Positions 23,644-61,340 of a DNA stretch of 64,000 bases are shown here, in pieces. Position 1 is the stretch's first letter. Each line of letters opens with the position of its first letter. The translations under genes and the position numbers were made by a program. The notes under the pieces were generated by a model. The model was not told the origin of the DNA. It saw nothing but the letters and a program-made list of their open reading frames with translations, and did no database searches. Origin of the DNA: Candidatus Daviesbacteria bacterium (GTDB lineage: Bacteria > Patescibacteriota > Microgenomatia > Daviesbacterales > UBA10151); the NCBI GenBank assembly GCA_016186955.1, contig JACPKP010000007.1, positions 1,962 through 65,961 on the forward strand, in the 5' to 3' direction.

Positions 23644-23652
23644 ACCGCGTTA

Positions 23653-32991: not shown

Positions 32992-34176
32992 ATGGCAGAT
33001 TCTAAAAAGTACGAAAGAACTAAACCGCACGTAAATGTCGGAACCATGGGTCATGTTGACCATGGTAAAACTACCCTGACTGCAGCGATTACCAAAGTTT
33101 TGGCAGGTAAAGGTTTGGCAGAGGTTAGAACTGTAGACCAAATTGATGCAGCCCCGGAGGAAAAAGCCCGCGGAATCACCATCAATATTTCCCATCAGGA
33201 ATATGAGACCGAAAAACGCCACTATGCCCACATCGATATGCCGGGTCATGCTGACTATATCAAAAACATGATTACCGGAGCAGCGCAGACAGACGGAGCT
33301 ATTCTGGTAGTTTCTGCCCCGGATGGCCCAATGCCTCAAACCAGGGAACATCTTTTGCTAGCCCGTCAGGTGGGGGTTCCGGCGATTGTGGTCTACCTTA
33401 ATAAAACAGATATGGTTGATGACCCTGAGCTTTTAGATTTAGTGGAAGAAGAGGTCAAAGACTTGCTTAAAAAATATGAATATGACCCCAATTCACCAAT
33501 AATCAGAGGCAGCGCTAAAAAAGCTTTGGAAGGCGATCCTGAAGCAGTTAAATCTATTGAAGCTTTAATGGAAGCTGTTGATACATGGATCCCAACCCCT
33601 GTTAGGGATAAAGATAAGCCGTTTTTGATGGCTGTTGAAGATGTATTTTCCATTAAAGGGCGTGGTACAGTGGCTACAGGCAGGATTGAAAGAGGGGTTG
33701 TCAAAATTAATGAGGAAATTGAAATTGTGGGTATCAGGCCTACCAAAAAGAGCGTTGTGACAGGCATTGAGATGTTCCATAAAATGCTCGACCAGGGTGA
33801 AGCAGGGGATAATGCCGGGATACTATTGCGGGGTGTTGAGAAAGATGATATTGAAAGAGGGCAGGTTTTGGCAAAACCCGGTTCAATCACCCCTCACAGT
33901 GAATTTGAGGCTGAAATTTATGTTTTGAGTAAGGAAGAGGGTGGAAGGCATACCCCGTTTTTTAAAGGCTACAGGCCGCAATTTTACATCAGGACTACTG
34001 ATGTGACAGGTGAGGTGCAGCTTCCTGAGGGGGTTGAGATGGCTATGCCTGGGGACACAGTTAAAATTGTAGGAAAATTAATCACCCCGGTTGCTATGGA
34101 GGATGGTTTGAGGTTTGCAGTCAGGGAAGGCGGGAAAACAGTAGGGGCAGGGGTCATTACCAAGATAATTGCTTAA
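32992..34176 (+). CDS. tuf: elongation factor Tu
   Basis: [22 protein letters not shown]; full length. Confidence 0.95.
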
Positions 34177-35526: not shown

Positions 35527-36324
35527 ATGATCCAGACATTACTGGGCACTAAAAAATTTATGACTTCAACTTATGATTCCCGCGGCAGGCGGGTGGGTGC
35601 AACAGTGGTTGAAATGAACCCGAATATGGTCACGCAAATTAAAGATAAGGAAGGGAAAGACGGATACGATGCTGTGCAATTGGGTTATGGAACTAAAAAG
35701 AGCGTAAAAAAACCCCAGATTGGTCATGCAAAAAAAGCCGGAGTTGAGGGTAAGATCAGGTGGATGCGTGAAGTTAGGGCTAGCGAGACTGTAAAACCTG
35801 GCGACCAGATCAGTTTGGGCCAGGTTTTTTCTGTTGGTGATGCAGTTAAAATAACAGGGGTAAGCAAGGGTAAAGGGTTTCAGGGTGGAGTCAGAAGGCA
35901 TGGATTCCATGGAGGGCCAAAAACCCATGGCCAATCAGACCGCCACCGGGCGCCAGGTTCCATCGGGGCCGGTACAACTCCGGGCCGGGTTTACAAGGGT
36001 AAAAGAATGGCAGGGCATATGGGAGTGGAGAGGGTGAGTTATAAAGGTTTGGAGGTTGTCAAAGTGGATAAACAAAACAACCTGTTGACTATCAAAGGCG
36101 GTGTGCCTGGTCCGGCAGGAGGATTTGTAATAGTTGAAAAACAAGGACGGATAAAAGGTTATACGCCACCACCTGAGGAAAAACCTGAAGAGGAAGAATT
36201 AGAGTCAAGTGACAACACCTCGGAGGTGAAGTCAGAAGAGCCAAAAGTTGAAGCAACAGAAGAGGTTGAATCTACTGAAAGTTCCGATGAGGTAAAGGAG
36301 GAAACAGGAAATGGCAGTAATTAA
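35527..36324 (+). CDS. rplC: 50S ribosomal protein L3 with acidic C-terminal tail
   Basis: L3 core (GVSKGKGFQGGVRRHGF); about 50 aa of Glu/Ser-rich extension. Confidence 0.9.
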   Translation: MIQTLLGTKKFMTSTYDSRGRRVGATVVEMNPNMVTQIKDKEGKDGYDAVQLGYGTKKSVKKPQIGHAKKAGVEGKIRWMREVRASETVKPGDQISLGQVFSVGDAVKITGVSKGKGFQGGVRRHGFHGGPKTHGQSDRHRAPGSIGAGTTPGRVYKGKRMAGHMGVERVSYKGLEVVKVDKQNNLLTIKGGVPGPAGGFVIVEKQGRIKGYTPPPEEKPEEEELESSDNTSEVKSEEPKVEATEEVESTESSDEVKEETGNGSN

Positions 36325-37180
36325 GTCAAAAGTCAAAAGCCCGTCTGCCGGACGGGCAGGTCAAAAGTCAAAAGTATCAAGAAAAGATTCTGTCGCCCCG
36401 AGTAACTCGGGGATCCAGAATGACAAAAAACCAAAAAAGACTAAAAAAGTTGCAGGAGTAAATAAGATTGCCACGTCCTCCGAAAAGGTTAAAAAACCTA
36501 TAGTTAAAACTAAGACAACATCAAATTTGTCAATTCCTGTTTATTCTCTGGCAGGCAGCAAGACCGCAGCAAGTTTGGCATTGCCTAAAGAAATTTTTGG
36601 CGCCAAAGTAAACAAAGCCTTGCTTGCCCAGGCGATGAGGGTTTACCTTAATAATCAGAAAAGCCATTGGTCAAATACCAAAACCCGTGGTGAAGTAAAA
36701 GGGTCAACCAGGAAAATTTTTAAACAAAAAGGCACCGGCAGGGCAAGACATGGGGCAATCAGGGCCCCAATTTTTGTGGGCGGGGGGATTGCTTTGGGGC
36801 CAAAAAACCGGAAGGTAGTTTTGGATCTGCCCGCAAAAATGAAAAATGCGGCGCTGGTTTCAGCCTTAGCACAAAAAGCAGATGAGAAGCAGGTTTTAGG
36901 GATCAGCGGCTTGGATAAAGCAAGCGGAAAAACCAAAGAGATGATAGGCTTAGTCACAAGAGTCCAGAGTCAAGAGTCCAGTAAAAAAAGTATTTTGATT
37001 GTGGTGGGGGAGAAGATAGAAAATGCTGCTAGGGCTGTGAGAAATATTACAGGGGTAGATTTACTGCAATTTGACCAGATTAATGCTTATGAAGTAATTA
37101 AACACCAAAGCCTGGTTTTAACAAAGGAAGCTGTTGAAAAATTGCAGGGAAGACTATTGGGTAAAAAGGAGGCTAAATAA
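36311..37180 (+). CDS. rplD: 50S ribosomal protein L4 with ~80-aa Lys-rich N-terminal extension
   Basis: L4 core from about IPVYSLAG. The N-terminal extension contains the palindromic element (36324-36374) in-frame. Confidence 0.9.
   Translation: MAVIKSKVKSPSAGRAGQKSKVSRKDSVAPSNSGIQNDKKPKKTKKVAGVNKIATSSEKVKKPIVKTKTTSNLSIPVYSLAGSKTAASLALPKEIFGAKVNKALLAQAMRVYLNNQKSHWSNTKTRGEVKGSTRKIFKQKGTGRARHGAIRAPIFVGGGIALGPKNRKVVLDLPAKMKNAALVSALAQKADEKQVLGISGLDKASGKTKEMIGLVTRVQSQESSKKSILIVVGEKIENAARAVRNITGVDLLQFDQINAYEVIKHQSLVLTKEAVEKLQGRLLGKKEAK
36324..36374. repeat. GTCAAAA(x2)-GCCCGTCTGCCGGACGGGCAGG-GTCAAAA(x2) palindromic element, in-frame in rplD
   Basis: Encodes KSKVKSPSAGRAGQKSKV; family members at 37599, 38199, 47643, 44466 and 49419. 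Confidence 0.75.
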
Positions 37181-37182
37181 AA

Positions 37183-37692
37183 ATGACAGCTGTTATATTA
37201 AAACCGTTGGTTACGGAAAAATCAATGTCGCTTGTCAAATCAGGAATGTTTACATTCCTGGTGGATAAAAACGCCACCAAAAGTCAGATTGGGAAAGCTG
37301 TTTCCGGGAGATTTGCAGTGGATGTTTTAAGTGTCAGTACAGTGAATATGAAGGGTAAAACCAAACTGCAAAAGAGCAGAAAAGGGTATTTTCAGAAACC
37401 ATCGTTTAAAAAAGCAATAGTCCAGCTTAAAAAAGGGCAAAAAATTGCTTTGTTTGAATCAGCAGAGAAAGAAGAAGTAGAAGTGAGGACAGCAGAAGGT
37501 GAAGTAGTTGGCAAAACCACAGAAAAAAAGAGTTTATTGGGGAGGACAAAGATAAAGATCAGCAAGCTGTCTCCTGTGGAGATTGAACAAAATACAGCAG
37601 TCAAAAGCCCGCCTGCCGGACGGGCAGGTCAAAAGGCAAAAGTTAAAAGTACAAGTAAAAAATTAAAAGTAAACAAGAAAGGAGCTAAGTAA
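37183..37692 (+). CDS. rplW: 50S ribosomal protein L23 with C-terminal extension
   Basis: L23 core; the C-terminal 70 aa are Lys-rich and contain the palindromic element. Confidence 0.85.
   Translation: MTAVILKPLVTEKSMSLVKSGMFTFLVDKNATKSQIGKAVSGRFAVDVLSVSTVNMKGKTKLQKSRKGYFQKPSFKKAIVQLKKGQKIALFESAEKEEVEVRTAEGEVVGKTTEKKSLLGRTKIKISKLSPVEIEQNTAVKSPPAGRAGQKAKVKSTSKKLKVNKKGAK
37599..37645. repeat. palindromic element copy in the rplW 3' extension (GCCCGCCTGCCGGACGGGCAGG flanked by GTCAAAAG)
   Basis: Encodes VKSPPAGRAGQKAKVKS. Confidence 0.7.
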
Positions 37693-37695
37693 AAA

Positions 37696-38556
37696 ATGGC
37701 GCTAATTAGTTACAAAGAAAACACACCAACCAGAAGGTTTATGACCAAGCTCGAAAAACCAAAGAAAAACGGTAAACATCATAAATCCCTGGTCAGTATA
37801 CTGCCGAAACAAAGCGGCCGGTCGCATGGCAAAGTTACAGTCCGCCACCAGGGCGGAAGGCACAAGAGATATTACAGGTTAGTTGATTTCAAAAGGAATA
37901 AATTTGGAGTAGAAGCAGTAGTGGAAGCTTTTGAGTATGACCCAAACAGGAATGTCAATATTGCCCTGGTTAAATATGCCGATGGTGAGAGAAGATACAT
38001 CTTAGCGCCTTCAGGTTTAAAGCCGGGGGATAGAGTGATATCAGGAGAAAGGGTTGAAGTAAAGGTTGGCAATGCCATGAAACTTAAAAATATGCCTGTA
38101 GGTACAATAGTCCATAATGTGGAGTTGACACCGGGCAGAGGAGGCCAGTTTGGGCGTAGTGCAGGTACAGGGTTGACTATCCAGGCGAAAGATAGCGGCC
38201 TGCCTGCCGACCTGCCTGACGGCAGTCAGGGCAGGCAGGGGTTTGCGCACTTGAAAATGCCCTCAGGAGAGATTAGAATGGTTCCCCTGGAGGCTATGGG
38301 GACTGTTGGAAGCTTGGGTAACGAAGAATGGAAGAATGTTACTTTTGGTAAGGCTGGAAGAAAAAGGCATATGGGGATCAGGCCGACTGTCAGGGGGACA
38401 GCCCAGGATCCCCACTCACATCCGCATGGTGGAGGAGAGGGCAGGTCAGGAATCGGCAGAAAAAGCCCCATGACGGTATACGGTAAAAAGGCAGTGGGAA
38501 ATACCAGAAAAAAGAATAAATGGACAAGCAAGTATATTTTGAAAAGGAGGAAATAG
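37696..38556 (+). CDS. rplB: 50S ribosomal protein L2 with ~14-aa internal insertion
   Basis: L2 core (HGGGEGR...). The insertion LPADLPDGSQGRQG is encoded by a ~41-nt palindrome. Confidence 0.9.
   Translation: MALISYKENTPTRRFMTKLEKPKKNGKHHKSLVSILPKQSGRSHGKVTVRHQGGRHKRYYRLVDFKRNKFGVEAVVEAFEYDPNRNVNIALVKYADGERRYILAPSGLKPGDRVISGERVEVKVGNAMKLKNMPVGTIVHNVELTPGRGGQFGRSAGTGLTIQAKDSGLPADLPDGSQGRQGFAHLKMPSGEIRMVPLEAMGTVGSLGNEEWKNVTFGKAGRKRHMGIRPTVRGTAQDPHSHPHGGGEGRSGIGRKSPMTVYGKKAVGNTRKKNKWTSKYILKRRK
38199..38239. repeat. GC-rich palindrome CCTGCCTGCCGACCTGCCTGACGGCAGTCAGGGCAGGCAGG in-frame inside rplB
   Basis: Outer arms CCTGCCTGC/GCAGGCAGG; shares the CTGCCGAC core with the intergenic copies. Confidence 0.65.
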
Positions 38557-38650
38557 AGTCTAGTCGCAAGAGTCCAGAGTCAAGTGAACGTCATTGCGAG
38601 GACTCCGATGGACATCGGAGGACGAAGCAATCTAATAAAAATTAAAAATT
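38556..38650. repeat. rplB-rpsS spacer element: GTCAAGA 7-mers, TCCGATG-GA-CATCGGA palindrome, AAAATTAAAAATT before the rpsS ATG
   Basis: A 94-nt spacer where these genes are normally adjacent. Confidence 0.5.
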
Positions 38651-38935
38651 ATGTCAAGATCATCATATAAAGGTCCGTATGTGGACGTCAAATTGTTAAA
38701 AAAAGTTAATGCACAAAAGGCTGATGGTGCAAAAACTCCGATTAAAACCTGGGCCAGAAGGTCACAGATTCCGCCTGAATTCGTGGGCCATACATTTTTG
38801 GTGCATCAAGGTAAGAATTTTGTGTCTGTTTATATTTCTGAATCCATGGTGGGGCACAAACTTGGGGAATTTGCGCCAACCAGAATTTTTAGGTCACATG
38901 GAAAGATGACTGAGAAAAGCGTAGCAAAAACATAA
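38651..38935 (+). CDS. rpsS: 30S ribosomal protein S19
   Basis: S19 signature [33 protein letters not shown]. Confidence 0.9.
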
Positions 38936-38941
38936 AACATA

Positions 38942-39418
38942 ATGGAGTATACAACAATACAAAAAAATATTACTACTTCGCCCAGGAAACTGAGGTTGGT
39001 GGCTGATATGGTGAGAAAAATGAGCCCAGAGCAGGCTGTAGAAATTTTGCAGTTTACCAATAAAGCGGCTGCTCAACCTTTGATCAAAGCCATCAAAACT
39101 GTTTTGGCAAACAGCAAAAAAGCTGATGTGGTTTTTAAAACCATTGAGATCAACGAAGGGCCAAAATTAAAAAGATACAGGGTGGGTACAGCCGGTAGAG
39201 GACGGGGCAGGCCGTACAGGAGAAGATGGAGCCATATAAAAATCGTTTTGATAGACGATTTAAATGTCAAAAGTCAAATGTCAAAAGTCAAAAGTACAGT
39301 TCAAAATGCAAAAGTAGAAGATAAGAAGGCAGCGTTAAAAGAAAAAGGAAGGGAGGGTAAAAAGAGTGTGCGGACTCCCGAAGTAGATCCTTCGACTCGC
39401 TACGCTCGCTCAGGATGA
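38942..39418 (+). CDS. rplV: 50S ribosomal protein L22 with C-terminal extension
   Basis: L22 core; the extension contains GTCAAAA/GTCAAAT 7-mer repeats (39266-39294). Confidence 0.9.
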   Translation: MEYTTIQKNITTSPRKLRLVADMVRKMSPEQAVEILQFTNKAAAQPLIKAIKTVLANSKKADVVFKTIEINEGPKLKRYRVGTAGRGRGRPYRRRWSHIKIVLIDDLNVKSQMSKVKSTVQNAKVEDKKAALKEKGREGKKSVRTPEVDPSTRYARSG

Positions 39419-39451
39419 CAAAGTAAGTTTAAAAATTGTACTTACTTTGTC
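39417..39451. repeat. perfect 12-bp inverted repeat hairpin GACAAAGTAAGT-N11-ACTTACTTTGTC between rplV and rpsC
   Basis: Overlaps the rplV stop; followed by an A-rich tract and then the rpsC ATG. Confidence 0.5.
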
Positions 39452-39462
39452 AAATAAAAACT

Positions 39463-40104
39463 ATGGCGCAAAAGATACATCCGGTTGGTTTTAGGTTGGG
39501 GATCGGTACCACCTGGGAGTCAAGGTGGTTTGCCAACGGCAAAAAATACCAGCAAAACTTACTGGAAGATATAAAAATAAGAAATTTGCTAATCAAAAAA
39601 CTCAGGCCCGCCGGGATTACAAAAATAGAAATAGAACGTTCTATCAATAAAATCAGGATCATTATTTTTGTTACACGCCCTGGTATACTAATTGGCAGGG
39701 GAGGTACAGGTTTAACAGATTTAAAAAAATATTTATTAAATGAGCTGAAAATAAAAGAGGAAAATAATTTAGAAGTTATACCTATGGATATTAAGCAGCC
39801 TGACCTATCAGCTTATTTAGTTGCGCAAAACATTGCAGAGCAATTAGCAAGAAGGATGCCTGCAGCCAGGGTAATGAACCAGGCTATAGACAGGGTGATG
39901 CGCTCAGGTGCAAAAGGGGTGAGGATTGTTTTGTCAGGTAGGATCGGAGGGGCTGAGATTGCCAGACGTGAGTGGAAAGCCTCTGGTTCAATGCCGTTGC
40001 ATACCTTAAGGTCGGATATTGATTTTACAGTTTACCCGGCAATGACCAAGTCTGGTTATGTGGGGGTAAAAGTTTGGATAAACAAGGGGGAAAGTAAAAT
40101 ATAA
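39463..40104 (+). CDS. rpsC: 30S ribosomal protein S3
   Basis: [13 protein letters not shown]...; KH and S3-C domains. Confidence 0.9.
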
Positions 40105-40517
40105 TGGCGCTTTTAGTACCAAAAAGAGTTAAATACCGGAAAGCCTTTAGAGGTAAGAGGGGTGGGGTAGCTACCCGCAATAATACCATTGTTTTTGGCA
40201 ACTTTGGATTAAAAAGCGAAGCTGCCGGTTGGGTATCTTCCCGCCAGCTGGAAGCTTCCAGGCGTGCCATGACCCGCTACACACAGCGGGGTGGACGTAT
40301 TTGGATCAGGGTTTTTCCTGATAAGCCGGTTACCAAACACCCGGCAGAATCAAGGATGGGTTCAGGGAAGGGAGATGTTGAGGGGTATGTGGCTGTGATT
40401 AGGCCGGGGACGATTTTATTTGAGATGGGCGCTGTTTCAGAGGAGATTGCGAAAGAAGCCATGAGGCTGGCAGCCCATAAATTACCGTTAAAAACCAGAT
40501 TTATTATAAAGGAATAA
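40104..40517 (+). CDS. rplP: 50S ribosomal protein L16
   Basis: L16 signature [14 protein letters not shown]. Confidence 0.9.
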
Positions 40518-40523
40518 TATTTT

Positions 40524-40760
40524 ATGCGTAAAAATGATTTTGTACAGATAAAAGGGTTAGACAAACAGGTTATTTCAGGCAAAGTTAAGGAGCTTAGGCA
40601 GGAGATCTCAGCTTTAATTATGGATAAAAATATGAATAAACTGAAGGATTTAAAAAGTATTTATAAAAAAAGGAAAGATTTAGCCCAACTGTTGACTGTA
40701 CGGCGGCAAAAACAGTTGTTGGAACAATTGGAGTCAACAGTGAAAGGAGCAACAGAATGA
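40524..40760 (+). CDS. rpmC: 50S ribosomal protein L29
   Basis: Position and size between L16 and S17; coiled-coil L29-like. Confidence 0.8.
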   Translation: MRKNDFVQIKGLDKQVISGKVKELRQEISALIMDKNMNKLKDLKSIYKKRKDLAQLLTVRRQKQLLEQLESTVKGATE

Positions 40761-41173
40761 TCGGACGGGTTATATCAACAAAAATGCAAAAAAGCGCTGT
40801 TGTTTTGGTAAACAACAAGAAAAAGCATCCATTGTATAAAAAAACCTTTTTAAGGACCAAAAAATATTTGGTTGATGACCCTATTGGGGTAAAAGACGGA
40901 AATATTGTAGAGATTATCAAAATAAAGCCGGTATCAAGGCATAAACATTGGGGCGTTGTGAAGGTGTTGGGTACAGATATAGTTACTTTAGGGACAGAGG
41001 TTTTGAAGGAAGAGGCAAAAGAGGCGATTGAAGAGGTTCTGCCTGTTGAAAAACAAGGAGAAGCTGCAGCTCAGGAGCCGCTGCCAAAAGAAGAAGTGAA
41101 AAAGAAAGTGGGAAAAACTGAAAAAGTAAAAATTGAAAGACCAAAAAGAAAAAGAAAGGGGGAACTTAGTTAG
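40757..41173 (+). CDS. rpsQ: 30S ribosomal protein S17 with Lys/Glu-rich C-terminal extension
   Basis: S17 core GRVISTKMQKSAVV... Confidence 0.85.
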   Translation: MIGRVISTKMQKSAVVLVNNKKKHPLYKKTFLRTKKYLVDDPIGVKDGNIVEIIKIKPVSRHKHWGVVKVLGTDIVTLGTEVLKEEAKEAIEEVLPVEKQGEAAAQEPLPKEEVKKKVGKTEKVKIERPKRKRKGELS

Positions 41174-41255
41174 TCCGCTTGTCAAAAATGCTGCGCATTT
41201 TTGCAAGCGATCTCAAAAACTATAATTGTTTGTAGTTTAGAGGAAGTTTTTTCCG

Positions 41256-41624
41256 ATGGTACAACACAGAAGTATGTTAAATGTAGCAGATAATTCAGGG
41301 GCCAGAAAGGTTCAGGTTATCCAGCTGCTTGGCGGATCGGGTAAACGGTTCGGCAGGTTGGGTGAGACCTTGGTGGCTGTAGTCAAGGGGGCTTTATCCA
41401 ACAGCCAGGTTAAAAACGGGGAGATTGTCAGGGCTGTCTTGGTTAGGGCCCGTAAAGAGAAACGGCGGGATGACGGTTCTTATGTAAAATTTGATGACAA
41501 TGCGGCAGTTGTAGTCGACAAAGACGGAAATTTGCGGGCAACCAGGATTTTTGGTCCTATTGCCAGAGAGGTGAGGGATGCCGGGCACAATAAAATTGCA
41601 TCACTAGCACAGGAGGTATGGTAA
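41256..41624 (+). CDS. rplN: 50S ribosomal protein L14
   Basis: L14 N-terminus MVQHRSMLNVADNSGARKV. Confidence 0.9.
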   Translation: MVQHRSMLNVADNSGARKVQVIQLLGGSGKRFGRLGETLVAVVKGALSNSQVKNGEIVRAVLVRARKEKRRDDGSYVKFDDNAAVVVDKDGNLRATRIFGPIAREVRDAGHNKIASLAQEVW

Positions 41625-41731
41625 TCGGACTGAAGCGAGAAACAATTACACTAATCCCTAATTGTTTCGAGCAAAGGAGATCGCTTGCCACAATTGTGTA
41701 ATCAATTGTGGACAAGGGAAAGGAAAACAAT
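41621..41731. repeat. intergenic element E copy 1 (GGTAATCGGACTGA...CCACAATTG-N6-CAATTGTGG...GGAAAGGAAAACAAT)
   Basis: Starts in the rplN stop codon and ends at the rplX ATG. Paralogous to 43397-43482. Contains a perfect 9-bp inverted repeat at 41689-41712. Confidence 0.65.
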
Positions 41732-42034
41732 ATGTCTAAAATAAGAAAAGGCGATAAAGTTAAAATTTTGTTGGGAAAAGACAGAGGAAAAACCGGCGCT
41801 ATCGAAAAAGTATTGGTTCAAAAAAGCCGGGTTTTAGTTTCAGGTGTCAATTTAGTAAAAAGGCATGTAAAAAAACAAGGGACTATTGAAGGCGGAATTA
41901 TTGATATCGCCAAGCCAGTCAATATTTCCAACGTTATGTTAATTTGTCCCAGTTGCAACTTGCCAACAAGAGTGGGGTTTAAGATAGGGGCAGAAAAAGC
42001 CAGGATATGTAAAAAATGCAAAAAGGAGATTTGA
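41732..42034 (+). CDS. rplX: 50S ribosomal protein L24 (KOW) with C-terminal 4-Cys zinc-ribbon variant
   Basis: L24 start MSKIRKGDKVKIL; C-terminal CPSC...CKKC. Confidence 0.85.
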   Translation: MSKIRKGDKVKILLGKDRGKTGAIEKVLVQKSRVLVSGVNLVKRHVKKQGTIEGGIIDIAKPVNISNVMLICPSCNLPTRVGFKIGAEKARICKKCKKEI

Positions 42035-42040
42035 TGATTT

Positions 42041-42589
42041 ATGAAGACTTTAAAAGAAAAATATTTGGAGGAGGTGCAACCGAAAATGATGGAAGAGTTC
42101 AGTATTAAAAATGTTTTTGCAGCGCCTAAATTAAAAAAGATAGTTATCAATATGGGTCTGGCTGACGCAAAAGAGGATGCCGGTATTTTAGAAAAATCAG
42201 TGGTTAATGTTGCAGCTATTTCAGGCCAGAAGCCGGTTGTGACAAAGGCTAAAAAATCCATCGCAGCTTTTAAACTTACGAAAGGCGCTTCAATAGGGTT
42301 GATGGTAACTTTAAGGGGTGATAAGATGTATGCTTTTTTCAATAAACTTGTAAATATAGTATTGCCAAAAGTGAGGGATTTTAGGGGAGTTGCACAAACC
42401 GGCTTTGACAGCAAGGGAAATTATAATTTAGGTTTTAAGGAACTACTCATATTCCCTGAAATAAACTATAAAAATGTTGATAAACCAAGGGGGTTGCAGG
42501 TTACTATTAATACAACAGCAGAAAACAGGGAGCAGGGGAAAATGTTGCTAGAGCTGATGGGGATGCCTTTTAAGAAAGGGGACAGATAA
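42041..42589 (+). CDS. rplE: 50S ribosomal protein L5
   Basis: Typical L5. Confidence 0.9.
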   Translation: MKTLKEKYLEEVQPKMMEEFSIKNVFAAPKLKKIVINMGLADAKEDAGILEKSVVNVAAISGQKPVVTKAKKSIAAFKLTKGASIGLMVTLRGDKMYAFFNKLVNIVLPKVRDFRGVAQTGFDSKGNYNLGFKELLIFPEINYKNVDKPRGLQVTINTTAENREQGKMLLELMGMPFKKGDR

Positions 42590-42690
42590 AATTTTCAATT
42601 TAAAATTTACAATTTTCAATCAAATCTTAATTTTAAATTAAAACATTGGAAATTCATTGAAAATTAAAAACTGAAAATTAAAAATTAATT
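42588..42690. repeat. AT-rich intergenic repeat R copy 1 (AAATTTTCAATTTAAAATTTACAATTTTCAAT...AAAATTAAAAATTAATTT-ATG)
   Basis: Paralogs at 42887, 44381 and 49333. Confidence 0.7.
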
Positions 42691-42870
42691 TATGGCTAAG
42701 GTTAGTAATATAGTCAAGAAAAAAGTTAAATATGAAGTCCAAAAAGTGAACCGCTGTTTACGGTGTGGCAGGTCACGTGGTTTTATCAGACGCTTTGGTG
42801 TATGCAGAATTTGTTTTAGGGAACTTGTTTACCGCGGTTATTTACCGGGAGTAAAAAAATCATCATGGTA
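42691..42870 (+). CDS. rpsZ: 30S ribosomal protein S14 type Z (zinc-binding, 59 aa)
   Basis: [59 protein letters not shown] with a CxxC...CxxC motif. Below the 60-aa ORF-track cutoff; called by eye. Confidence 0.8.
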
Positions 42871-42886
42871 ATAGAAAGGAAAAAAG

Positions 42887-43004
42887 AGAAATTTTCAATT
42901 TAAAATTTACAATTTTCAATCAATGATTTAATGTTTAAATTTTGAAAATTAATCAAATGAAAATTCATTAAAAATTGAAAAATAAAAATTAAAAATTAAT
43001 TATT
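42887..43004. repeat. AT-rich intergenic repeat R copy 2
   Basis: Same head (GAAATTTTCAATTTAAAATTTACAATTTTCAATCAATGATTTAAT) and tail (AAAATTAAAAATTAATTATT-ATG) as copy 1. Confidence 0.7.
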
Positions 43005-43400
43005 ATGGATACAGTAGCCGATGCATTAACCAGAATAAAGAATGGATATATGGCCCGTAGGACCGAGGCGGTTTTGACATACTCAAAACTGGTTTTAGCA
43101 GTGCTCAAAGTTTTAGAAAAAGAGGGTTATATTGAAAATTTTAAAGAAAAAAAAGATGAGAAAAATAAAAATATTATTCAGATTTTAGTGGGGTTAAAGT
43201 ATGACGGCAAGAAGCCGGTTTTGACAGATCTTAAAAAGATTTCGAAACCCGGTTTGAGGGTATATAAAAGCAGCAAGAAGTTGCCCAGGGTTTTGAATGG
43301 TTTAGGTGTTGCAATAATTTCAACCCCAAAAGGGGTTATGACAGACAGACAAGCCAGAAAAGTTGGGCTCGGAGGAGAAATATTGGCGTATGTCTGGTAA
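43005..43400 (+). CDS. rpsH: 30S ribosomal protein S8
   Basis: S8 N-terminus DTVADALTRIKNG. Confidence 0.9.
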   Translation: MDTVADALTRIKNGYMARRTEAVLTYSKLVLAVLKVLEKEGYIENFKEKKDEKNKNIIQILVGLKYDGKKPVLTDLKKISKPGLRVYKSSKKLPRVLNGLGVAIISTPKGVMTDRQARKVGLGGEILAYVW

Positions 43401-43482
43401 TCGGACTGAGCGTAGCGAAGGAGATCGCTTGCCACAATTGTGTAACCAATTGTGGACAAGGGTAAAGAAAGGATAAAAATTT
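43397..43482. repeat. intergenic element E copy 2 (with CCACAATTG-N6-CAATTGTGG at 43432-43455)
   Basis: Starts in the rpsH stop codon and ends at the rplF ATG. Confidence 0.65.
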
Positions 43483-44037
43483 ATGTCACGGATAGGGAAT
43501 GTGCCAATTACTATACCTGCAGGTGTTGATGTCCGGATAGATGGGCAAAATATTGCTGTGTCCGGTCCAAAAGGGGAACTTGAGATAGTTGTCCGTCCGG
43601 AACTAAAAATAGAAAAAGGGGATACTAAACTGTTAATCAAAACCATAAAACAGAACCGTATCTCCCGTTCTTTGCATGGTTTGACCCGGTCCCTGTTAAA
43701 TAATATGGTTTTGGGTGTCCATACAGGATGGATTAAAAATTTAGAGATGGTGGGAGTTGGGTACCGGGCTCAGGGAGGGGGAGATACATTAACGCTTAGT
43801 ATAGGATTTTCTCATCCTGTGACAGTCAAAGCGCCTGCAGGGATAACTTTTAGTGTTACGGACAATACCAAAATAACCGTTGCAGGCATTGATAAAAATC
43901 TGGTCGGGCAAACTGCGGCAAATATCAGGGCAGTAAAACCTCCGGAAGTATACAAAGGAAAAGGGATCAGGATGAGCGGTGAATATGTCAGGCGGAAACC
44001 AGGCAAGGCAGGTAAAGCCATAGGAGGAGCAAAATAA
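43483..44037 (+). CDS. rplF: 50S ribosomal protein L6
   Basis: MSRIGNVPITIPAGVDV. Confidence 0.9.
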   Translation: MSRIGNVPITIPAGVDVRIDGQNIAVSGPKGELEIVVRPELKIEKGDTKLLIKTIKQNRISRSLHGLTRSLLNNMVLGVHTGWIKNLEMVGVGYRAQGGGDTLTLSIGFSHPVTVKAPAGITFSVTDNTKITVAGIDKNLVGQTAANIRAVKPPEVYKGKGIRMSGEYVRRKPGKAGKAIGGAK

Positions 44038-44038
44038 T

Positions 44039-44374
44039 ATGTATAAGATCAAGCGGATGCAAAAACATAAAAAGATCAGGAAGGATATATCAGGGACTCA
44101 AGATAGGCCTAGGCTAGCTGTGTTTAAATCCAGCCAGCATATTTATGCCCAGATTATTGATGATACACAAAATAAAACCCTGGTGGATGCGTCAGACCTC
44201 AAGATAAAAAATGGTAAAAAATCAGACAAGGCATCAATGGTCGGTGAAGAATTGGCTAAAAAAGCTGTCAAAAGAAACTTAAAAAAAGTTGTTTTTGACA
44301 GAGGTGGTTTTAGATACCATGGCAGGATAATGGCTTTAGCAGAAGCTGCAAGGAAGGGAGGACTAGAGTTCTGA
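44039..44374 (+). CDS. rplR: 50S ribosomal protein L18
   Basis: L18 core ...RPRLAVFKSSQHIYAQIID. Confidence 0.85.
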   Translation: MYKIKRMQKHKKIRKDISGTQDRPRLAVFKSSQHIYAQIIDDTQNKTLVDASDLKIKNGKKSDKASMVGEELAKKAVKRNLKKVVFDRGGFRYHGRIMALAEAARKGGLEF

Positions 44375-44380
44375 GGAACT

Positions 44381-44507
44381 CAAATTTTCAAGTCACAATT
44401 TACAATTTTCAATAAATGATTTAATTTTAAATTTTAAACATTGAAAATTCATTGTAAATTGAAAACCTGTCTGCCGACAGGCAAGACTAAAAATTAAAAA
44501 TTAATTT
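44381..44507. repeat. AT-rich intergenic repeat R copy 3, carrying embedded GC hairpin CCTGTCTGCCGACAGG (44466-44481)
   Basis: Head CAAATTTTCAAGTCACAATTTACAATTTTCAAT, tail AAAATTAAAAATTAATTT-ATG (rpsE). Confidence 0.7.
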
Positions 44508-45020
44508 ATGGATCCAAGAAATAGGTTTAACAATCAAAGAAGGGGTTATAACAGGCCACCGCAAGAGCCCTCTGAATTTTTTGAAAAAGTAGTCCAGGTC
44601 AATAGGGTATCAAAAAAGACAAAGGGAGGAGATAAACGTTCGTTGTCTGTTTTGGTGGTCGTTGGGGATAAGAAAGGCAGGGTGGGTGTGGGCTTGGGCA
44701 AAGCGGCGGATGTCCAGTCAGCTGTCAGGAAAGCTACAGCCTATGCTAAAAAACATCTTTTCGCAGTCCCTTTAAAAAACAATCGGACAATTCCCCACAG
44801 CATATTTGTAAAACTGGGCGCTGCAAAGGTAATGATGAAGCCTGCATCGGAGGGGATAGGGGTGATTGCAGGGGGGGCAGTCAGGGTTGTGATGGAGGCG
44901 GCAGGCATCAAAGATATAATTTCAAAAGTATTGGGCACCAGTAACCAGGCATCTAATGTCTATGCAAGTTTGGAGGCGTTGAAGCAGCTTAAGCCTTTTG
45001 TAAAGAGGGGGGATAAATGA
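44508..45020 (+). CDS. rpsE: 30S ribosomal protein S5
   Basis: S5 dsRBD and C-domain. Followed directly by rplO with no L30 gene between them. Confidence 0.9.
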   Translation: MDPRNRFNNQRRGYNRPPQEPSEFFEKVVQVNRVSKKTKGGDKRSLSVLVVVGDKKGRVGVGLGKAADVQSAVRKATAYAKKHLFAVPLKNNRTIPHSIFVKLGAAKVMMKPASEGIGVIAGGAVRVVMEAAGIKDIISKVLGTSNQASNVYASLEALKQLKPFVKRGDK

Positions 45021-45472
45021 AATTACATAAATTACCAAAACTGAAAGCCAGGCCTAAAAAACGCCTCGGGAGGGGTTTGGGTTCAGGTAAAGGAAAAACC
45101 GGCGGGAGAGGACAAAAAGGCCAGAAAGCACGCGGAAAGATTCCTGCAGCCAATGTCGGCGGAGGCCTGATTTTATATAAAAAACTGCCCTTCCGGAGGG
45201 GGTTAAGCCGGAAAGGCGGTAACCCGCCCCGTTTGCCAAAACCTATATTAATTAGTCTTTCCAGCTTAAATCAGGTTAAAGCAAAAACACATATTAATAT
45301 AGATACTTTGATTGAAAATGGTTTGATTAAGGCAAAAGATGCTAAAATTAGGGGAGTTAAAATATTAGCCAACGGTAAATTACAGATACCGCTTGTAGTT
45401 GAGCTGCCTGTAAGCAAAAAAGCCAAGGAGTTAATTGAAAAGGCCGGAGGTAATATTGGAATTATAGGTTAA
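45017..45472 (+). CDS. rplO: 50S ribosomal protein L15
   Basis: Gly/Arg-rich L15 N-terminal region. Confidence 0.85.
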   Translation: MKLHKLPKLKARPKKRLGRGLGSGKGKTGGRGQKGQKARGKIPAANVGGGLILYKKLPFRRGLSRKGGNPPRLPKPILISLSSLNQVKAKTHINIDTLIENGLIKAKDAKIRGVKILANGKLQIPLVVELPVSKKAKELIEKAGGNIGIIG

Positions 45473-46765
45473 TTGATGAATAAGATATTTGCCCCTCTGC
45501 TCAATGCATTTAAAATACCGGATCTCAGAAAAAAAATTCTGATCTCTATCCTCATTTTAATAATTTTCAGGATAGCTGCCTATATTCCAGTCAGTGGTGT
45601 GGACCTTGTAGGGCTGCGCGATTTATTTACAAATAATGAATTTTTAGGCCTTTTGGATATTTTCTCAGGAGGGACTCTGGCAAACTTTTCAGTGATTGCC
45701 TTAGGGTTAAACCCGTATATTAATGCGTCGATTATTATCCAGCTTTTAACAATGGTTTTTCCAAAACTTGAAGCAATGAGCAAAGAAGGGGAACAGGGCA
45801 GACAAAAAATAACCCAATACACCCGTTATTTGACAGTGCCTTTAGCAGTCGTCCAGGCGATAGGTATGGTTACCCTTTTGAAAAAACAGGATCTTATAAC
45901 CGTTTCTACACCTGTTGATATCCTGGCGATTATTATCGGGATGACAGCAGGCACCCTGTTTTTAATGTGGTTGGGAGAACTTTTAACTGAATACGGGATA
46001 GGTAACGGCATTTCAGTTTTGATTTTTGCAGGCATTGTGGCGAGAGCGCCTGTGGTGCTTTTCCAAACAGCATCAGTGGTGCAGCAGCAACAGGTCATTA
46101 ACCTGTTAATTTTTGCAGGTGTGGCAATTCTAATTATAGCAGGCGTTGTTTTTGTCAACGAAGGCAGAAGACAGATTCTGGTGCAGTATGCCAGAAGATA
46201 TTCCGGCGCCAGACAGGTTGCAGCATCCCACACATACCTGCCGCTTAGAGTAAACCAGGCAGGAGTTATACCGATCATTTTTGCAGTTTCACTGGTTTTA
46301 ATACCTTCTTTCGGAGGGCAGTTTTTAACGCAACTCCCCCAACCTTTTTTCCAGCAGGTAGGATATTTCTTAAACGCAAATTTTCAACCCAGGTCTTTGG
46401 TTTATAACCTTGTTTACTTTATTCTTGTTATAGGGTTTACTTATTTTTACACGGCGGTAGTTTTTAACCCGACAAAAATTGCAGACGAGATTAAAAAATA
46501 TGGTGGATTTATCCCGGGAATCAGGCCGGGGAGTGCCACAGCCAGTTACTTAAATTATATCTTAGTGAGGATTACTTTGGCTGGCGCTGTATTCTTGGGG
46601 ATGATTGCTATTCTGCCTTCAATGATCTCGCAATTGACTGACATTTCAACGTTGGTGGTTGGAGGCACCTCGCTTTTGATCGTAGTTTCAGTAATATTGG
46701 ATACTGCCAAACAGTTTGAAAGCAAGCTGATTGAACGAAATTATGAAGGGTTTTTGAAAAAGTGA
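45473..46765 (+). CDS. secY: preprotein translocase subunit SecY
   Basis: 10-TM SecY topology with conserved motifs. Confidence 0.95.
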
Positions 46766-47313
46766 AAATTTTAATCACCGGTCCGCAGGGTTCTGGTAAA
46801 ACAACCCACGCCAAAATTGTGGCAGAAAAATTTAATTTATGTTTTATCAAAACCGGGGACTTGGTGAGGAATAAAGCTTTAGAAAATAGTGATGAAGGAA
46901 GAAAGTTGAAAGAGGCTTTGGATAAAGGTGAGTTGGCAGATGATAGGATTATTGCAAATTTAGTAGAAAATGCGTTGGTACAACAAAATTGCAAAGATAA
47001 TTTTGTAATGGATGGTTATCCCAGGCGGCTGCCCCAGCTTCAGGTTTTTGACCCTGGTTTTGATAAGGTTTTTTATTTGGACTTATCTGATGAGATGGCA
47101 GTAGAGAGGATGCTGAAAAGAAGCAGGGAGGATGATACTCCTCAATTAATTCAACAAAGGCTAATGTTGTACCATCGGGAAACTGAAAAAGCGCTAAAGT
47201 ACTATCAAACTATGGGAATTTTAATAAAAATTAATGCAGCAAGAAGTATTGGAGAAGTTGCTGGAGATATAGTGGACCATTTAAAAAGACATGGCAATAA
47301 ATACAAGGACTAA
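46762..47313 (+). CDS. adk: adenylate kinase (short form, no zinc lid)
   Basis: [15 protein letters not shown]. Confidence 0.85.
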
Positions 47314-48091
47314 GGGAGAACTGGCGCTAATGAGAAAGAGTGGGGTTATTACTGCCAGGGCGTTGGGAGAAGTCTTGAAGAATGTCCGTGAAGGTATTAG
47401 CCTGATAGAATTGGAAAAAGTTGCGGAAAACCAGGTTGTCAAGTTGGGAGGAGAACCTTCATTTAAAACCGTCCCTGGTTACAGATGGACTTCCTGCTTG
47501 ACTATCAACAATGAGGTTGTACACGGAATCCCAAGGGATATTAAGTTGAAAAATGGTGATATCTTAAGTGTTGATTTAGGCGCAGTTTTTAAAGGCTGGC
47601 ATACGGATGCTGCATGGAGTGTGGTGGTGGGAAGTCAAAAGTCAAAAGCCCGTTTGCCGAACGGGCAGGTCAAAAGTCAAAATGATGAAAAAGAGAAATT
47701 TTTAGCAGTGGGGGAAGAGGCTCTATGGAAGGGGATTGGGCAGGCAGTGGATGGTAATAGAATAGGTGATATCTCCGGGGTTATACAGGAAGTTGTGGAG
47801 AGCGCAGGTTATTCAGTTGTGCGGGCGCTGGTAGGGCATGGGGTGGGCAGGGAGCTGCATGAAGACCCCGAAGTGCCGGGATATGGTAAAAAAAGTACAG
47901 GGCTCAAACTTATTGCAGGCATGACGCTTGCGGTAGAGGTGATTTACACCAGCGGGAAACCTGATGTAGTTTTGGATCCTGATGGTTGGACTATCACTAC
48001 TGCAGATGGAAGCCTGGGTGGACTTTTTGAGATGAGTGTGGTGGTAGGTGTAAAACAAGCTGAAGCGCTGACGGATTGGAGACAAAAGTGA
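47291..48091 (+). CDS. map: methionine aminopeptidase type I with ~25-aa internal insertion
   Basis: Pita-bread fold motifs. The true start may be the internal Met at 47324. The insertion is encoded by the palindromic element (47643-47690). Confidence 0.85.
   Translation: MAINTRTKGELALMRKSGVITARALGEVLKNVREGISLIELEKVAENQVVKLGGEPSFKTVPGYRWTSCLTINNEVVHGIPRDIKLKNGDILSVDLGAVFKGWHTDAAWSVVVGSQKSKARLPNGQVKSQNDEKEKFLAVGEEALWKGIGQAVDGNRIGDISGVIQEVVESAGYSVVRALVGHGVGRELHEDPEVPGYGKKSTGLKLIAGMTLAVEVIYTSGKPDVVLDPDGWTITTADGSLGGLFEMSVVVGVKQAEALTDWRQK
47643..47690. repeat. palindromic element copy in-frame in map (GTCAAAAGTCAAAAG-CCCGTTTGCCGAACGGGCAGG-TCAAAAGTCAAAA)
   Basis: Stem bases differ from the rplD copy in a compensatory manner (GCCCGTT/AACGGGC versus GCCCGTC/GACGGGC). 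Confidence 0.75.
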
Positions 48092-48139
48092 CTATGGGTT
48101 GTTTTTTGAATTTAAAACTGCTACAATTGTAAGGTTAAT

Positions 48140-48391
48140 ATGGATGACCAGATACCGGATTTAATTAAAGTGCAGGGAGTAGTCAGGGAGGTTTTGCCGA
48201 ACACTTTATTCCGGGTTGAAGTCACCGGTTCCGCGGATCTGCCTGAACTGACTAGCCGGGTGATTTTATGTCACATATCTGGTAAAATGCGTAGGCACTA
48301 TATCAGGCTGTTGGCAGGAGATAGGGTTGAGGTAGAGATGAGCCCGAAATATGATCTTGATAAAGGACGAATTACTTTTAGATTAAAGTGA
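48140..48391 (+). CDS. infA: translation initiation factor IF-1
   Basis: S1-like OB fold: [18 protein letters not shown]... Confidence 0.9.
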
Positions 48392-48392
48392 T

Positions 48393-48509
48393 ATGAGAGT
48401 ACAAGCAAGCGTTAAAACCAGATGCAAGTTTTGTAAATTTGTGCGCAGGGAGGGCGTATTGTTTGTAATATGCCCGCGTGACCCAAAACACAAGCAGAGG
48501 CAGGGATAA
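48393..48509 (+). CDS. rpmJ: 50S ribosomal protein L36 (38 aa)
   Basis: [38 protein letters not shown], a zinc-ribbon L36; below the ORF-track cutoff. Confidence 0.8.
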
Positions 48510-48512
48510 ATT

Positions 48513-48908
48513 ATGGCACGTATCGCAGGAGTGGATTTACCAAATGAAAAAAGGGCGGATATCGGGCTTACTTACATCTATGGTGTAGGCAGGTCTAATG
48601 TTGTGCAAATTTTGGAAAAAGCAGGAGTGGATGGCAGCAAAAGGATTAAAGATTTAAGTGAGGAAGAGGTTAATAAATTAGCTAAAGCTTTGGAGGGGAT
48701 TACAGTTGAAGGAGACCTGCAGAGAGAGATTGAACAAAATATCAAAAGGTTGGAGGAGATCGGAAGTTACCGGGGTTTGAGGCACAGAAAAGGGTTGCCG
48801 GTTAGAGGCCAGAGGACCAGGTCAAACGCCAGGACTAAAAAAGGCAAGAGAAAAACAGTAGGCACTGTCAGAAAGGAAGTTACAGCCAAAACGATGCCGA
48901 AGCAATGA
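48513..48908 (+). CDS. rpsM: 30S ribosomal protein S13
   Basis: [14 protein letters not shown]. Confidence 0.9.
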
Positions 48909-48934
48909 GGCATCGTCCTGAACAAGAAGGAAAC

Positions 48935-49330: not shown

Positions 49331-49332
49331 AC

Positions 49333-49458
49333 TAAATTTTCAAGTCACAATTTACAATTTTCAATCAATGATTTAATTCTTAAATTTTAAACATTGAAAA
49401 TTCATTAAAAATTGAAAACCTGTCTGCCGACAGGCAAGACTGAAAATTAAAAATTATT
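49333..49458. repeat. AT-rich intergenic repeat R copy 4, carrying GC hairpin CCTGTCTGCCGACAGG (49419-49434)
   Basis: Near-identical to copy 3; tail AAAATTAAAAATTATT-ATG (rpsD). Confidence 0.7.
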
Positions 49459-61335: not shown

Positions 61336-61340
61336 TAAAT

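Follow-up and report, generated by a model that had tools for sequence, protein, structure and literature searches.

The locus described here raises the question of how a GC-rich palindrome of 41 nt came to lie, in frame, within the gene of a highly conserved ribosomal protein. The gene is rplB, encoding L2 (uL2), in a 64,000-nt stretch of DNA (the window) that represents the str/S10/spc/alpha ribosomal-protein region of a metagenome-assembled genome (MAG) of Candidatus Daviesbacteria (Patescibacteria, or candidate phyla radiation; 41% G+C). The palindrome is probably a selfish hairpin micro-element, present as a nested pair, that is tolerated in the gene and translated together with L2, and not a feature that evolved as part of L2 itself.

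Anatomy of the rplB palindrome

The product of rplB is identical to the L2 protein recorded at NCBI for "Candidatus Daviesbacteria bacterium"; it carries the Pfam domains PF00181 and PF03947 and is matched over its full length by solved uL2 chains (E = 4e-80). The palindrome, CCTGCCTGCCGACCTGCCTGACGGCAGTCAGGGCAGGCAGG, occupies positions 38199-38239 and codes, in the frame of the gene, for LPADLPDGSQGRQG, which forms residues 169-182 and is flanked by ..IQAKDSG and FAHLKMPSGEIR (the insert region of the peptide reads DSGLPADLPDGSQGR). Its outer arms, CCTGCCTGCC and GGCAGGCAGG, pair perfectly over 10 bp, and an inner hairpin, CTGCC/GGCAG, lies within it. An earlier inspection of the letters of this DNA (the sequence-only reading) had recognized the palindrome correctly and had given its outer arms as 9 bp, one pair short of the length that we measured.

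The 41-mer consists of two nested copies of a GC-rich hairpin element of ~20 nt, an arrangement that the sequence-only reading had missed. The canonical form of the element is the 20-mer CCTGCCTGCCGGCAGGCAGG, which can be parsed as a stem CCTGCC, a loop TGCC, a stem GGCAGG and a tail CAGG, and which contains no stop codon in any frame. One copy in rplB is split after nt 11 by the second, which lies in the reverse orientation (Table 1), and the resulting 41-mer is open in the frame that the gene uses. On the minus strand, the inner copy has a perfect 6-bp stem, the TGCC loop and the CAGG tail; it differs from the 20-mer at two positions, and these pair with each other in the 16-nt register of the hairpin. 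In rplB the inserted DNA adds up to 42 nt (2 x 21 nt), equal to 14 codons. Nested pairs in two other MAGs, one deltaproteobacterial (L020) and one from the Bacteroidetes (L044), likewise have the host copy interrupted after nt 11.

Filled and empty sites in L2 genes

The best 120 homologues of the window's L2 (68-81% identity by BLASTP) were used as the comparison set, and 118 of them have no residues at all between QAKE-x-G and (F/Y)AHLKM. Their usual length is 272 aa, against 286 aa in the window, which is a difference of 14. The sister proteins P0002 and P0003 (85-86% identity outside the insert) are empty in their protein sequences, where QAKE(S/G)G is joined directly to FAHLKM, and in their DNA, where ..TCT GGT runs straight into TTT GCG... 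Empty sites of the form AGC/TCT GGT followed by TTT also occur in loci L158, L002 and L159, relative to which the window has gained 42 nt, or 14 codons, and the relatives have the same operon without the hairpin. The sequence-only reading had proposed a 14-aa insertion relative to canonical L2, to be checked by multiple alignment of the proteins and by nucleotide comparison of rplB with that of relatives, and both comparisons bear it out. Among the best 120 the insert is confined to the L2 of the window (14 aa) and to P0005 (7 aa), and the 14 residues, far from being conserved across the phylum in non-palindromic coding DNA, are absent from the relatives.

The second filled gene, P0005, lies on a Logan contig (L001) that was assembled from another sample and comes from an unrelated Daviesbacteria lineage. 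Its 7-aa insert, LPAGRQA, is found at the same Gly codon and is encoded by the perfect palindrome GGCCTGCCTGCCGGCAGGCAGGCC, which contains the canonical 20-mer. The nearest relative of P0005, P0089 (87%), is empty, and in a neighbour-joining tree of 60 L2 sequences no clade of fewer than 50 unites the two filled genes. The simplest reading of this distribution is that two gains in L2 would have occurred independently.

The rplB-rpsS interval differs among Daviesbacteria as well: L001 (877-1176) and L157 (915-1184), from two relatives, have an additional open reading frame (ORF) of ~90-100 aa, with no Pfam hit, between rplB and rpsS, where the window has a spacer only.

Related copies in the window

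Eight copies of the element are present in the 64 kb, the two in rplB and six more of 21 nt each (Table 1), and they follow a common plan of 21 nt, stem6-TGCC(G)-stem6'-CAGG/CAAG-N. The stems vary in a compensatory manner, with pairing kept, as CCTGCC/GGCAGG (outer copy in rplB), CCTGAC/GTCAGG (inner copy, minus strand), CCTGTC/GACAGG (44466 and 49419), CCCGTC/GACGGG (36340) and CCCGTT/AACGGG (47649); the copy at 9200, with one stem mismatch, is the weakest member of the family. The sequence-only reading had placed the rplB palindrome in one family with the intergenic hairpins at 44466 and 49419, and the shared 21-nt plan and compensatory stems agree with that assignment. Their common core, CTGCCGAC, occurs six times in the window as compared with an expectation of 0.5; the sites just named account for three of these occurrences, and the remainder, all on the minus strand, seem to be fortuitous matches in coding DNA. 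The copies inside rplD, rplW and map had gone unnoticed.

Several of these copies are likewise missing from related sequences. The rplD copy is absent from the L4 gene of the closest relative, L002, the L23 of which lacks the whole segment that holds the rplW copy. In map (methionine aminopeptidase, 47291-48091, with Pfam Peptidase_M24 over residues 13-219), alignment to PDB 1o0x leaves a gap of 14 aa exactly at the 47649 copy. The 44466 element has no counterpart in two paralogous intergenic repeats (42635-42690 and 42946-43001), which are empty at that point. These empty repeats, the empty orthologous sites and the independent hit at the same L2 codon in L001 all support the description of the family as mobile, which was already part of the sequence-only reading.

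Five of the eight copies lie inside arrays of period 7, (GTCAAAA)n or (ATTAAAA)n, the phase of which is kept by an insert of 21 nt; the rplB copy lies outside such arrays. The composite of heptamers and hairpin is read in frame 0 in rplD and rplW and in frame 1 in map, and the conservation is therefore at the level of the DNA and not of the peptide.

Arrays of period 7 (AAAAGTC, AAGAGTC, AGAGTCC) also occur in coding DNA at 5819-5851, 5970-6002 (tgt), 36959-36981 (rplD), 37638-37670 (rplW) and 39262-39295 (rplV C-terminus), and, once translated, give ribosomal proteins and queuine tRNA-ribosyltransferase low-complexity stretches rich in K, S, Q and V. A run of three heptamers measures 21 nt (7 codons), the same period as that of the hairpin element.

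Table 1. Positions in the window of rplB, the copies of the hairpin element and a candidate partner gene
Feature	Position	Strand	Remarks
rplB (uL2), host gene	37696-38556	+	ORF, 286 aa
Outer copy in rplB, left 11 nt, CCTGCCTGCCG	38199-38209	.	With 38231-38239 rebuilds CCTGCCTGCCGGCAGGCAGG exactly
Inner 21-nt copy in rplB, ACCTGCCTGACGGCAGTCAGG, reverse orientation	38210-38230	-	Minus strand CCTGAC-TGCC-GTCAGG-CAGG-T
Outer copy in rplB, right 9 nt, GCAGGCAGG	38231-38239	.	Extra G at 38240 gives outer insert of 21 nt
Copy CCCGTC-TGCCG-GACGGG-CAGG in (GTCAAAA)n array, rplD N-terminal extension	36340-36360	+	Translated ..KSPSAGRAGQK..
Copy in rplW C-terminal extension	37608-37628	+	Translated ..KSPPAGRAGQK..
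Copy CCCGTT-TGCCG-AACGGG-CAGG inside map, GTCAAAA heptamers on flanks	47649-47669	+	Translated ..KARLPNGQVK..
Copy CCTGTC-TGCC-GACAGG-CAAGA in AT-rich heptamer-containing repeat upstream of rpsE	44466-44486	+	rpsE by Pfam
Copy of the 44466 subfamily (CCTGTC/GACAGG), intergenic, upstream of rpsD	49419-49439	+	rpsD by Pfam
Diverged copy CCTGTC-TATCC-GGCAGG-CAGG, codons ~10-17 of 1613-aa subtilase/FG-GAP gene	9200-9220	+	Host gene by Pfam
Small GIY-YIG (UPF0213, SLX1-like) gene, candidate trans-acting partner	61341-61595	+	HMM; Pfam PF01541, E = 1e-13

Distribution of the family beyond the window

In a collection with one genome per species, the exact 20-mer is present in at least 119 loci. The hosts among the matches listed include Patescibacteria of many classes, Omnitrophota, Bacteroidota, Planctomycetota, Gamma- and Deltaproteobacteria, Bdellovibrionales, Thermodesulfovibrionales, Elusimicrobia, Verrucomicrobia and Chloroflexi, more than 10 phyla overall, and the Bacteroidota are represented in part by cultured isolates (Winogradskyella, Flagellimonas, Longitalea and Aquiflexum). 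The WWE3 genome MEWB01000001 is another carrier of the 20-mer. The 20-mer also occurs in 35 viral loci of IMG/VR, with up to six copies on one contig of 29.5 kb, and several 20-mer loci hold two to six copies. This spread over many phyla and phage contigs was not part of the sequence-only reading. Three control palindromes of matched composition, one of them the arm-swapped GGCAGGCAGGCCTGCCTGCC made from the same repeats, gave 0, 0 and 0 viral matches, and near-copies with 1-3 mismatches are found in the 20-mer loci and not for unrelated control palindromes. The distribution of the 20-mer across phyla is far above chance. We found no published description of this family; the sequence strings used in the literature search (the 20-mer, CTGCCGGCAGG and GTCATTGCGAG) returned nothing relevant.

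In-frame insertions of the palindrome occur in rplB, rplD, rplW, map and the subtilase gene in the window and in genes for FtsK, GatB, RfbB and ScpB elsewhere. The intact ORFs through the 20-mer (FtsK, GatB, RfbB, where the element is nested, ScpB and a GT39-like protein) mostly read xLPAGRQx. When GatB and RfbB were aligned to solved homologues, extra residues were found at the palindrome, in loops too variable to give a clean 7-aa gap. Elsewhere, tandem arrays of heptamers or octamers, unrelated in sequence, hold many of the non-coding copies.

Mode of insertion

Filled and empty copies of the same tRNA sequence exist side by side in each of two loci (L172 and L204), where they differ by exactly 20 nt, and in a third (L231) ARAGORN finds a complete tRNA-Leu once the 20-mer is deleted. 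No target duplication accompanies the insertion in any of these three loci. Exact insertion of 20 nt without duplication of the target argues against a miniature inverted-repeat transposable element (MITE) of the DDE type, and fits either hairpin (single-strand) transposition or copying repair after a break. Coding copies keep the frame, as against the 20-nt non-coding insertions of other genomes, which argues that the former are translated and not removed. Each of the three events in L2 comprises 21 nt, the 20 nt and one more base (G, A/T or C), as would be expected if an essential gene can keep only products whose length is divisible by three; the copies of this genome in intergenic DNA and in heptamer arrays are also 21 nt long. 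The extra base at L2 might reflect selection or a 21-nt subfamily. The flanks of 20-mer sites show a bias for A before and T after the element and no GTAG-like motif.

Three other views of the insertions were tried and given up. The first held that the element always enters where a hairpin tip already exists; only ~6% of sites have flanking helices of at least 5 bp, a share ~4-fold above chance. The second treated the 20-mer as a tRNA intron; after its deletion, for which offsets of as much as 2 nt in both directions were allowed, L231 was the sole locus in which ARAGORN detected a full tRNA, and most of the apparent tRNA contexts are orphan 5' tRNA fragments leading into GIY-YIG genes and not interrupted functional tRNAs. 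The third, in which the palindrome is a solo terminal inverted repeat left by a larger transposon, is at odds with the exact insertions without target duplication, and no long elements bounded by two arms were found.

Apparently complete tRNA genes with the 20-nt palindrome in the D-loop are seen at ~1757 of L231 and ~1941 of L204; the latter tRNA has a second, variant copy at its T-arm, and in L181 a copy directly follows the anticodon loop.

Linkage to small GIY-YIG nuclease genes

The loci that contain the palindrome also led us to a gene with which it is associated in other genomes, a linkage that the sequence-only reading had missed. For 6 of the 10 small GIY-YIG ORFs in palindrome loci (among the matches listed), the palindrome lies 17-41 nt upstream of the domain, in one case as a near-copy with two mismatches. 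The converse test employed 80 metagenome loci that had been fetched solely by their similarity to GIY-YIG proteins (a 3-sequence alignment). The palindrome, at up to 4 mismatches, was present within 140 nt upstream in 46 of the 77 GIY-YIG genes that had enough upstream sequence, and most of these copies were exact. At up to 2 mismatches, 40 copies fell within 140 nt upstream of the 80 GIY-YIG genes as compared with 6 in the other ~158 kb, an enrichment of ~100-fold at distances of 12-66 nt.

In these cassettes the palindrome lies inside a tRNA-like 5' leader, mostly in the D-loop (e.g., between GCTCAGCTGGATA and GAGCA), and the cassettes can occur in tandem, in arrays that may end in an intact tRNA without the palindrome (L172). 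The proteins have the Pfam GIY-YIG domain, match PDB 1zg2 and 1ywl, and belong to the UPF0213, bacterial SLX1-like group, a minimal GIY-YIG family (PMC1564403); they are ~80 aa long and have no DNA-binding extension. One such gene exists in the window (Table 1), with a tRNA-Pro (61183-61255, by ARAGORN) just upstream of it. Most dispersed copies of the palindrome, including the one in rplB, have no nuclease gene next to them. Neither a Y1 nor any other transposase is among the Pfam families listed for the 41 ORFs of the window that were scanned.

The tandem unit in L172 (1040-1800), L226 and L235 joins the 5' part of a tRNA (nt 1 to ~48, its D-loop holding the palindrome) to a GIY-YIG ORF, and it looks like a cassette that enters tRNA genes at the junction of variable loop and T-arm. 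The array of L172 ends in an intact tRNA-Arg(TCT), the ATG of the ORF overlapping the first bases of the T-stem, and in L226 and L235 a second GIY-YIG gene is situated immediately upstream of the leader. In the window, the spacer between tRNA-Pro and the GIY-YIG gene (61256-61340) contains a 10-bp hairpin, CTTTCGACTC...GAGTCGAAAG, around a sequence of the CGCTTCGCTCGCTCAAGG type, followed by a stem GCCCT...AGGGC; these hairpins may be the local counterpart of the palindrome-bearing leaders found elsewhere. In L061 (3861-4150) a type I restriction specificity (HsdS-like) gene carries an in-frame GIY-YIG domain at its middle, between its two repeated halves, and the 20-mer precedes this domain.

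A possible route of insertion and spread

The structure of the rplB insert suggests a history in two steps. An element of ~20 nt would have entered the Gly168 codon of rplB as a unit of 21 nt, and a second 21-nt copy would then have entered the first, in reverse orientation and one base past its centre. The insert would be translated and not removed, and it might have survived because its length is a multiple of three, its frame is free of stop codons and its position is a surface turn at the tip of a beta-hairpin, in the solvent-exposed, 30S-facing globular domain of uL2, where it would add a flexible loop of Gly, Pro, Gln and Arg. In an AlphaFold2 model, residues 167-182 form a coil at the tip of the beta-hairpin of strands 160-166 and 183-187.

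Mobilisation by a GIY-YIG nuclease appears to us the most likely mechanism of spread, and we put it forward tentatively: copies might be propagated through template-copied repair initiated by the nuclease, in a manner resembling homing or gene conversion, the cut being made by the GIY-YIG protein in the palindrome or close to it. GIY-YIG enzymes make a cut with a 2-nt 3' stagger, and the off-centre point of nesting, taken on either strand, would fit a cut of that kind. A more speculative version, to which we give rather less than even credence, would make the 20-nt palindrome the smallest known mobile element driven by a nuclease, with the SLX1-like protein cutting, repair copying the hairpin and phages carrying it between phyla. 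According to this scheme, the GIY-YIG protein, encoded by cassettes that duplicate the 5' part of a tRNA, would recognize the palindrome, or the hairpin or cruciform that it forms, and make a staggered cut of 2 nt at one base's distance from the centre. The hairpin would then be copied by repair to new sites without duplication of the target. Among these sites would be tRNA D-loops, heptamer arrays, the element's own centre and, in the event of a 21-nt product, essential genes of which rplB is an example, and phages would ferry the element among phyla.

Alternative explanations and points to be weighed

The alternative that survives best, though we regard it as unlikely, is that the loop represents an adaptive expansion, i.e., a lineage-specific extension of uL2 recruited to alter the contact with the 30S platform (bridge B7b, bS6 and h23). 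The globular domain of uL2 is solvent-accessible and forms bridge B7b, and in yeast, mutations in the B7b region of uL2 shift the ribosome's rotational equilibrium (PMC4245932). In the chloroplast ribosome, Ala162 and Lys163 of uL2c contact bS6c near B7b (PMC5737520), and by numbering offset their equivalents should lie 3-5 residues before the insert. These relations, together with the occurrence of inserts at the same turn in two lineages, speak in favour of an adaptive extension. On the other hand, the insert is absent from the closest relatives and so is young; what is conserved is the pairing of the DNA (perfect arms, compensatory inner stem) and not the peptide; the same element is read in other frames in other genes; and the loop is modelled with low confidence (pLDDT ~57, against 82-91 on both sides). 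The recurrence at one site would be explained equally well if this were the only turn in L2 that tolerates an insert, and the residues that flank it do vary among L2 homologues.

It is more doubtful still that the palindrome acts as a regulatory RNA hairpin in the S10-operon mRNA (as a site for RNase III or for pausing, or as a stabiliser), its coding effect being incidental. The predicted fold of the 71-nt palindrome region is strong (-35.6 kcal/mol, z = -2.6 relative to shuffled sequences), and members of the family lie in the leaders of rpsE and rpsD and of GIY-YIG genes. The operon of the relatives works without the hairpin, however, no terminator-like site was found in 37600-38700 and no Rfam match at E <=1 in 36000-50000, and the copies occupy such unrelated places (N-termini, C-termini, internal loops and intergenic regions) that no single role would fit them.

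A local, non-mobile origin, in which slippage or template switching on CCTG/CAGG-like sequence created the palindrome and its likeness to other hairpins is convergent, is largely refuted and very improbable. The element does consist of tetranucleotides of the CCTG/CAGG type, and Tandem Repeats Finder (TRF) reports a short GGCAGGCAG repeat at 38221-38240. The palindrome taken alone is also not decisive: no other GC-rich inverted repeat in the window combines arms of 10 bp or more with a spacer of up to 30, and one or more such repeats arose in 34 of 300 first-order Markov simulations of the window (p ~0.1). Its significance derives instead from its being an insertion relative to the orthologues and from its having the arms of a specific and widespread 20-mer. 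The empty sites of the relatives (GGT followed by TTT) have no CCTG-like seed; the arms are identical, letter for letter, to the 20-mer of at least 119 genomes, whereas the arm-swapped version had no viral matches; the same sequence occurs independently at the same codon in L001; and the inner copy is a complete, reversed member of the family.

The least probable alternative is an artefact of assembly or sequencing, or an intron-like segment removed from the RNA to leave a canonical protein, to which the ability of palindromes to mislead assemblers, the origin of the allele from one contig and the presence of the 20-mer in otherwise complete tRNA genes (L231 and L204), where its removal would be needed for function, lend some colour, but against which stand the exact length of the insert (42 nt, in frame and open), the 21-nt version at the same codon in a different assembly from another sample, and the kept frame of the ORF inserts, as opposed to the 20-nt non-coding insertions outside this genome, which is to be expected only if they are translated. 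Bacteria are not known to splice such a hairpin out of mRNA.

Several observations weigh against the selfish-element interpretation or parts of it. The L2 allele with the 42-nt insert comes from a single MAG contig, and an exact-protein look-up gave no other record of it. Mobility would be deduced from patterns of presence and absence. The canonical insertion is 20 nt long, as against 21 nt in all three L2 events. The low share of sites with flanking helices, and the lack of a convincing hairpin at the L2 target, indicate that structure-directed targeting is not general. Only ~5% of the 20-mer sites in the genome loci (among the matches listed) adjoin a GIY-YIG gene, the link is seen in other genomes only, and the GIY-YIG gene of the window belongs to a somewhat different subfamily and has a leader without the canonical palindrome. 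The linkage may also be indirect, the palindrome simply accumulating in dispensable tRNA-like leaders because real tRNA genes would not tolerate it. Finally, the placement of the loop beside the B7b contacts was derived from numbering offsets, not from coordinates, and is approximate.

Comparison with known small elements

The family behaves like the small dispersed repeats (SDRs) of cyanobacteria and, in its coding insertions, like the Rickettsia palindromic elements (RPEs), and it lacks defining features of both, as well as of the repetitive extragenic palindromes (REP) with their associated transposases (RAYT) and of MITEs. SDRs, reportedly described by Elhai and co-workers in 2008 from heterocystous cyanobacteria, are said to measure 21-27 nt and to be confined to one cyanobacterial subgroup. 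Like the present elements (20-21 nt), they are very small, form hairpins with compensatory changes, lie in tandem heptamers, nest within themselves and are present or absent between related sequences, with no encoded protein and no known mechanism. In contrast to SDRs, the present family is found in Patescibacteria, Bacteroidota, Omnitrophota, Planctomycetota, Proteobacteria, others and viral contigs, and no cyanobacterium is named in the titles of the at least 119 genome loci among the matches listed. Its sequence probably differs from those of SDR1-8, and SDRs are not known to have in-frame copies in essential genes or a statistical link to GIY-YIG genes.

RPEs (Ogata et al. 2000, summarised in PMC10969869) are also palindromic selfish DNA, inserted in frame in unrelated housekeeping genes and translated where the fold tolerates it. 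They are specific to Rickettsia, ~100-150 bp long, and encode a conserved peptide of 30-50 aa, whereas the element described here has 20-21 nt (7 aa), is read in several frames, occurs across phyla and has a Daviesbacteria MAG as its host. REP and REPIN elements, which are mobilised by RAYT transposases resembling those of IS200/IS605 (PMC3116915), share with it the character of short, dispersed, GC-rich, non-autonomous hairpins, and insertion without duplication would fit an enzyme that recognizes a single-stranded hairpin. The present family differs in having no 5' tetranucleotide of the GTAG type and no doublet organisation and in not being restricted to extragenic DNA, and the gene associated with it encodes a GIY-YIG nuclease; the Pfam families listed for the 41 scanned ORFs of the window include no Y1 transposase. 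MITEs are set apart by their size (50-500 bp), far above that of the present element, and by the exact 20-nt insertions without duplication in L172, L204 and L231.

Phage T4 encodes in its tRNA gene cluster a free-standing homing endonuclease of the GIY-YIG type, SegB. The cassettes resemble this arrangement in having a small GIY-YIG gene among or beside tRNA genes, and cleavage of an empty site with repair from a filled copy would leave no target duplication. They differ from the free-standing GIY-YIG homing endonucleases (reviewed in general in PMC2988022 and PMC3943268) in that their ~80-aa UPF0213/SLX1-like domains have no DNA-binding extension, that most copies of the palindrome are 20-nt hairpins without a gene, and that cleavage is putative. 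One further parallel is organellar. The GC clusters of yeast mitochondria are mobile, 30-50 bp long and associated with target duplications, and optional ones lie within the VAR1 ribosomal-protein gene. They too are short palindromes, GC-rich within a genome that is AT-rich, they differ between strains and they can reside in a ribosomal-protein gene; they are unlike the present family in their organellar location, their length, their target duplications and their unrelated sequence.

If the selfish-element reading is sound, a repeat of only ~20 nt can enter the gene of a highly conserved protein and be translated, having apparently entered one spot of L2 two times in one lineage and a single time, independently, in another. 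Insertions in the ribosomal proteins of candidate-phyla bacteria would then not necessarily be adaptations, and the phylogeny markers uL2, uL4 and uL23 would carry non-homologous segments that should be masked. The movement of SDRs and the function of the widespread UPF0213 proteins would gain a concrete and testable hypothesis, and the L2 loop, if it touches the 30S platform, would amount to a natural perturbation of bridge B7b.

Other repeats in the window

An AT-rich intergenic repeat of ~110 nt exists in four copies (42589-42700, 42889-43011, 44382-44503 and 49334-49456) just upstream of ribosomal protein genes. It consists largely of heptamers (AATTTAC, ATTAAAA), and two of the four copies hold the 21-nt hairpin; the repeats may serve these genes in common as promoter or leader modules. 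A 57-nt repeat (41670-41726 and 43414-43470, 93% identity), with a hairpin CCACAATTGTG..CAATTGTGG and no Rfam match, recurs in two spc-operon spacers. Identical direct repeats of 69 nt (100%), at 23651-23719 and 24453-24521, flank an ORF of 236 aa (23739-24449) with no Pfam hit, and could have arisen by duplication or could form a small mobile cassette.

A second dispersed palindromic family, GTCATTGCGAGG...CGACGAAGCAATC, is represented in the window at 38590-38635, in the rplB-rpsS spacer, and at 32999-33010, and again at ~940 of L050. The 12-mer GTCATTGCGAGG occurs nine times in the fetched loci as compared with 0.16 expected. The centre of the family is occupied by an 18-nt hairpin, CTCCGATGGACATCGGAG, in the window, and in L050 the CCTGCC 20-mer is nested at the same central position.

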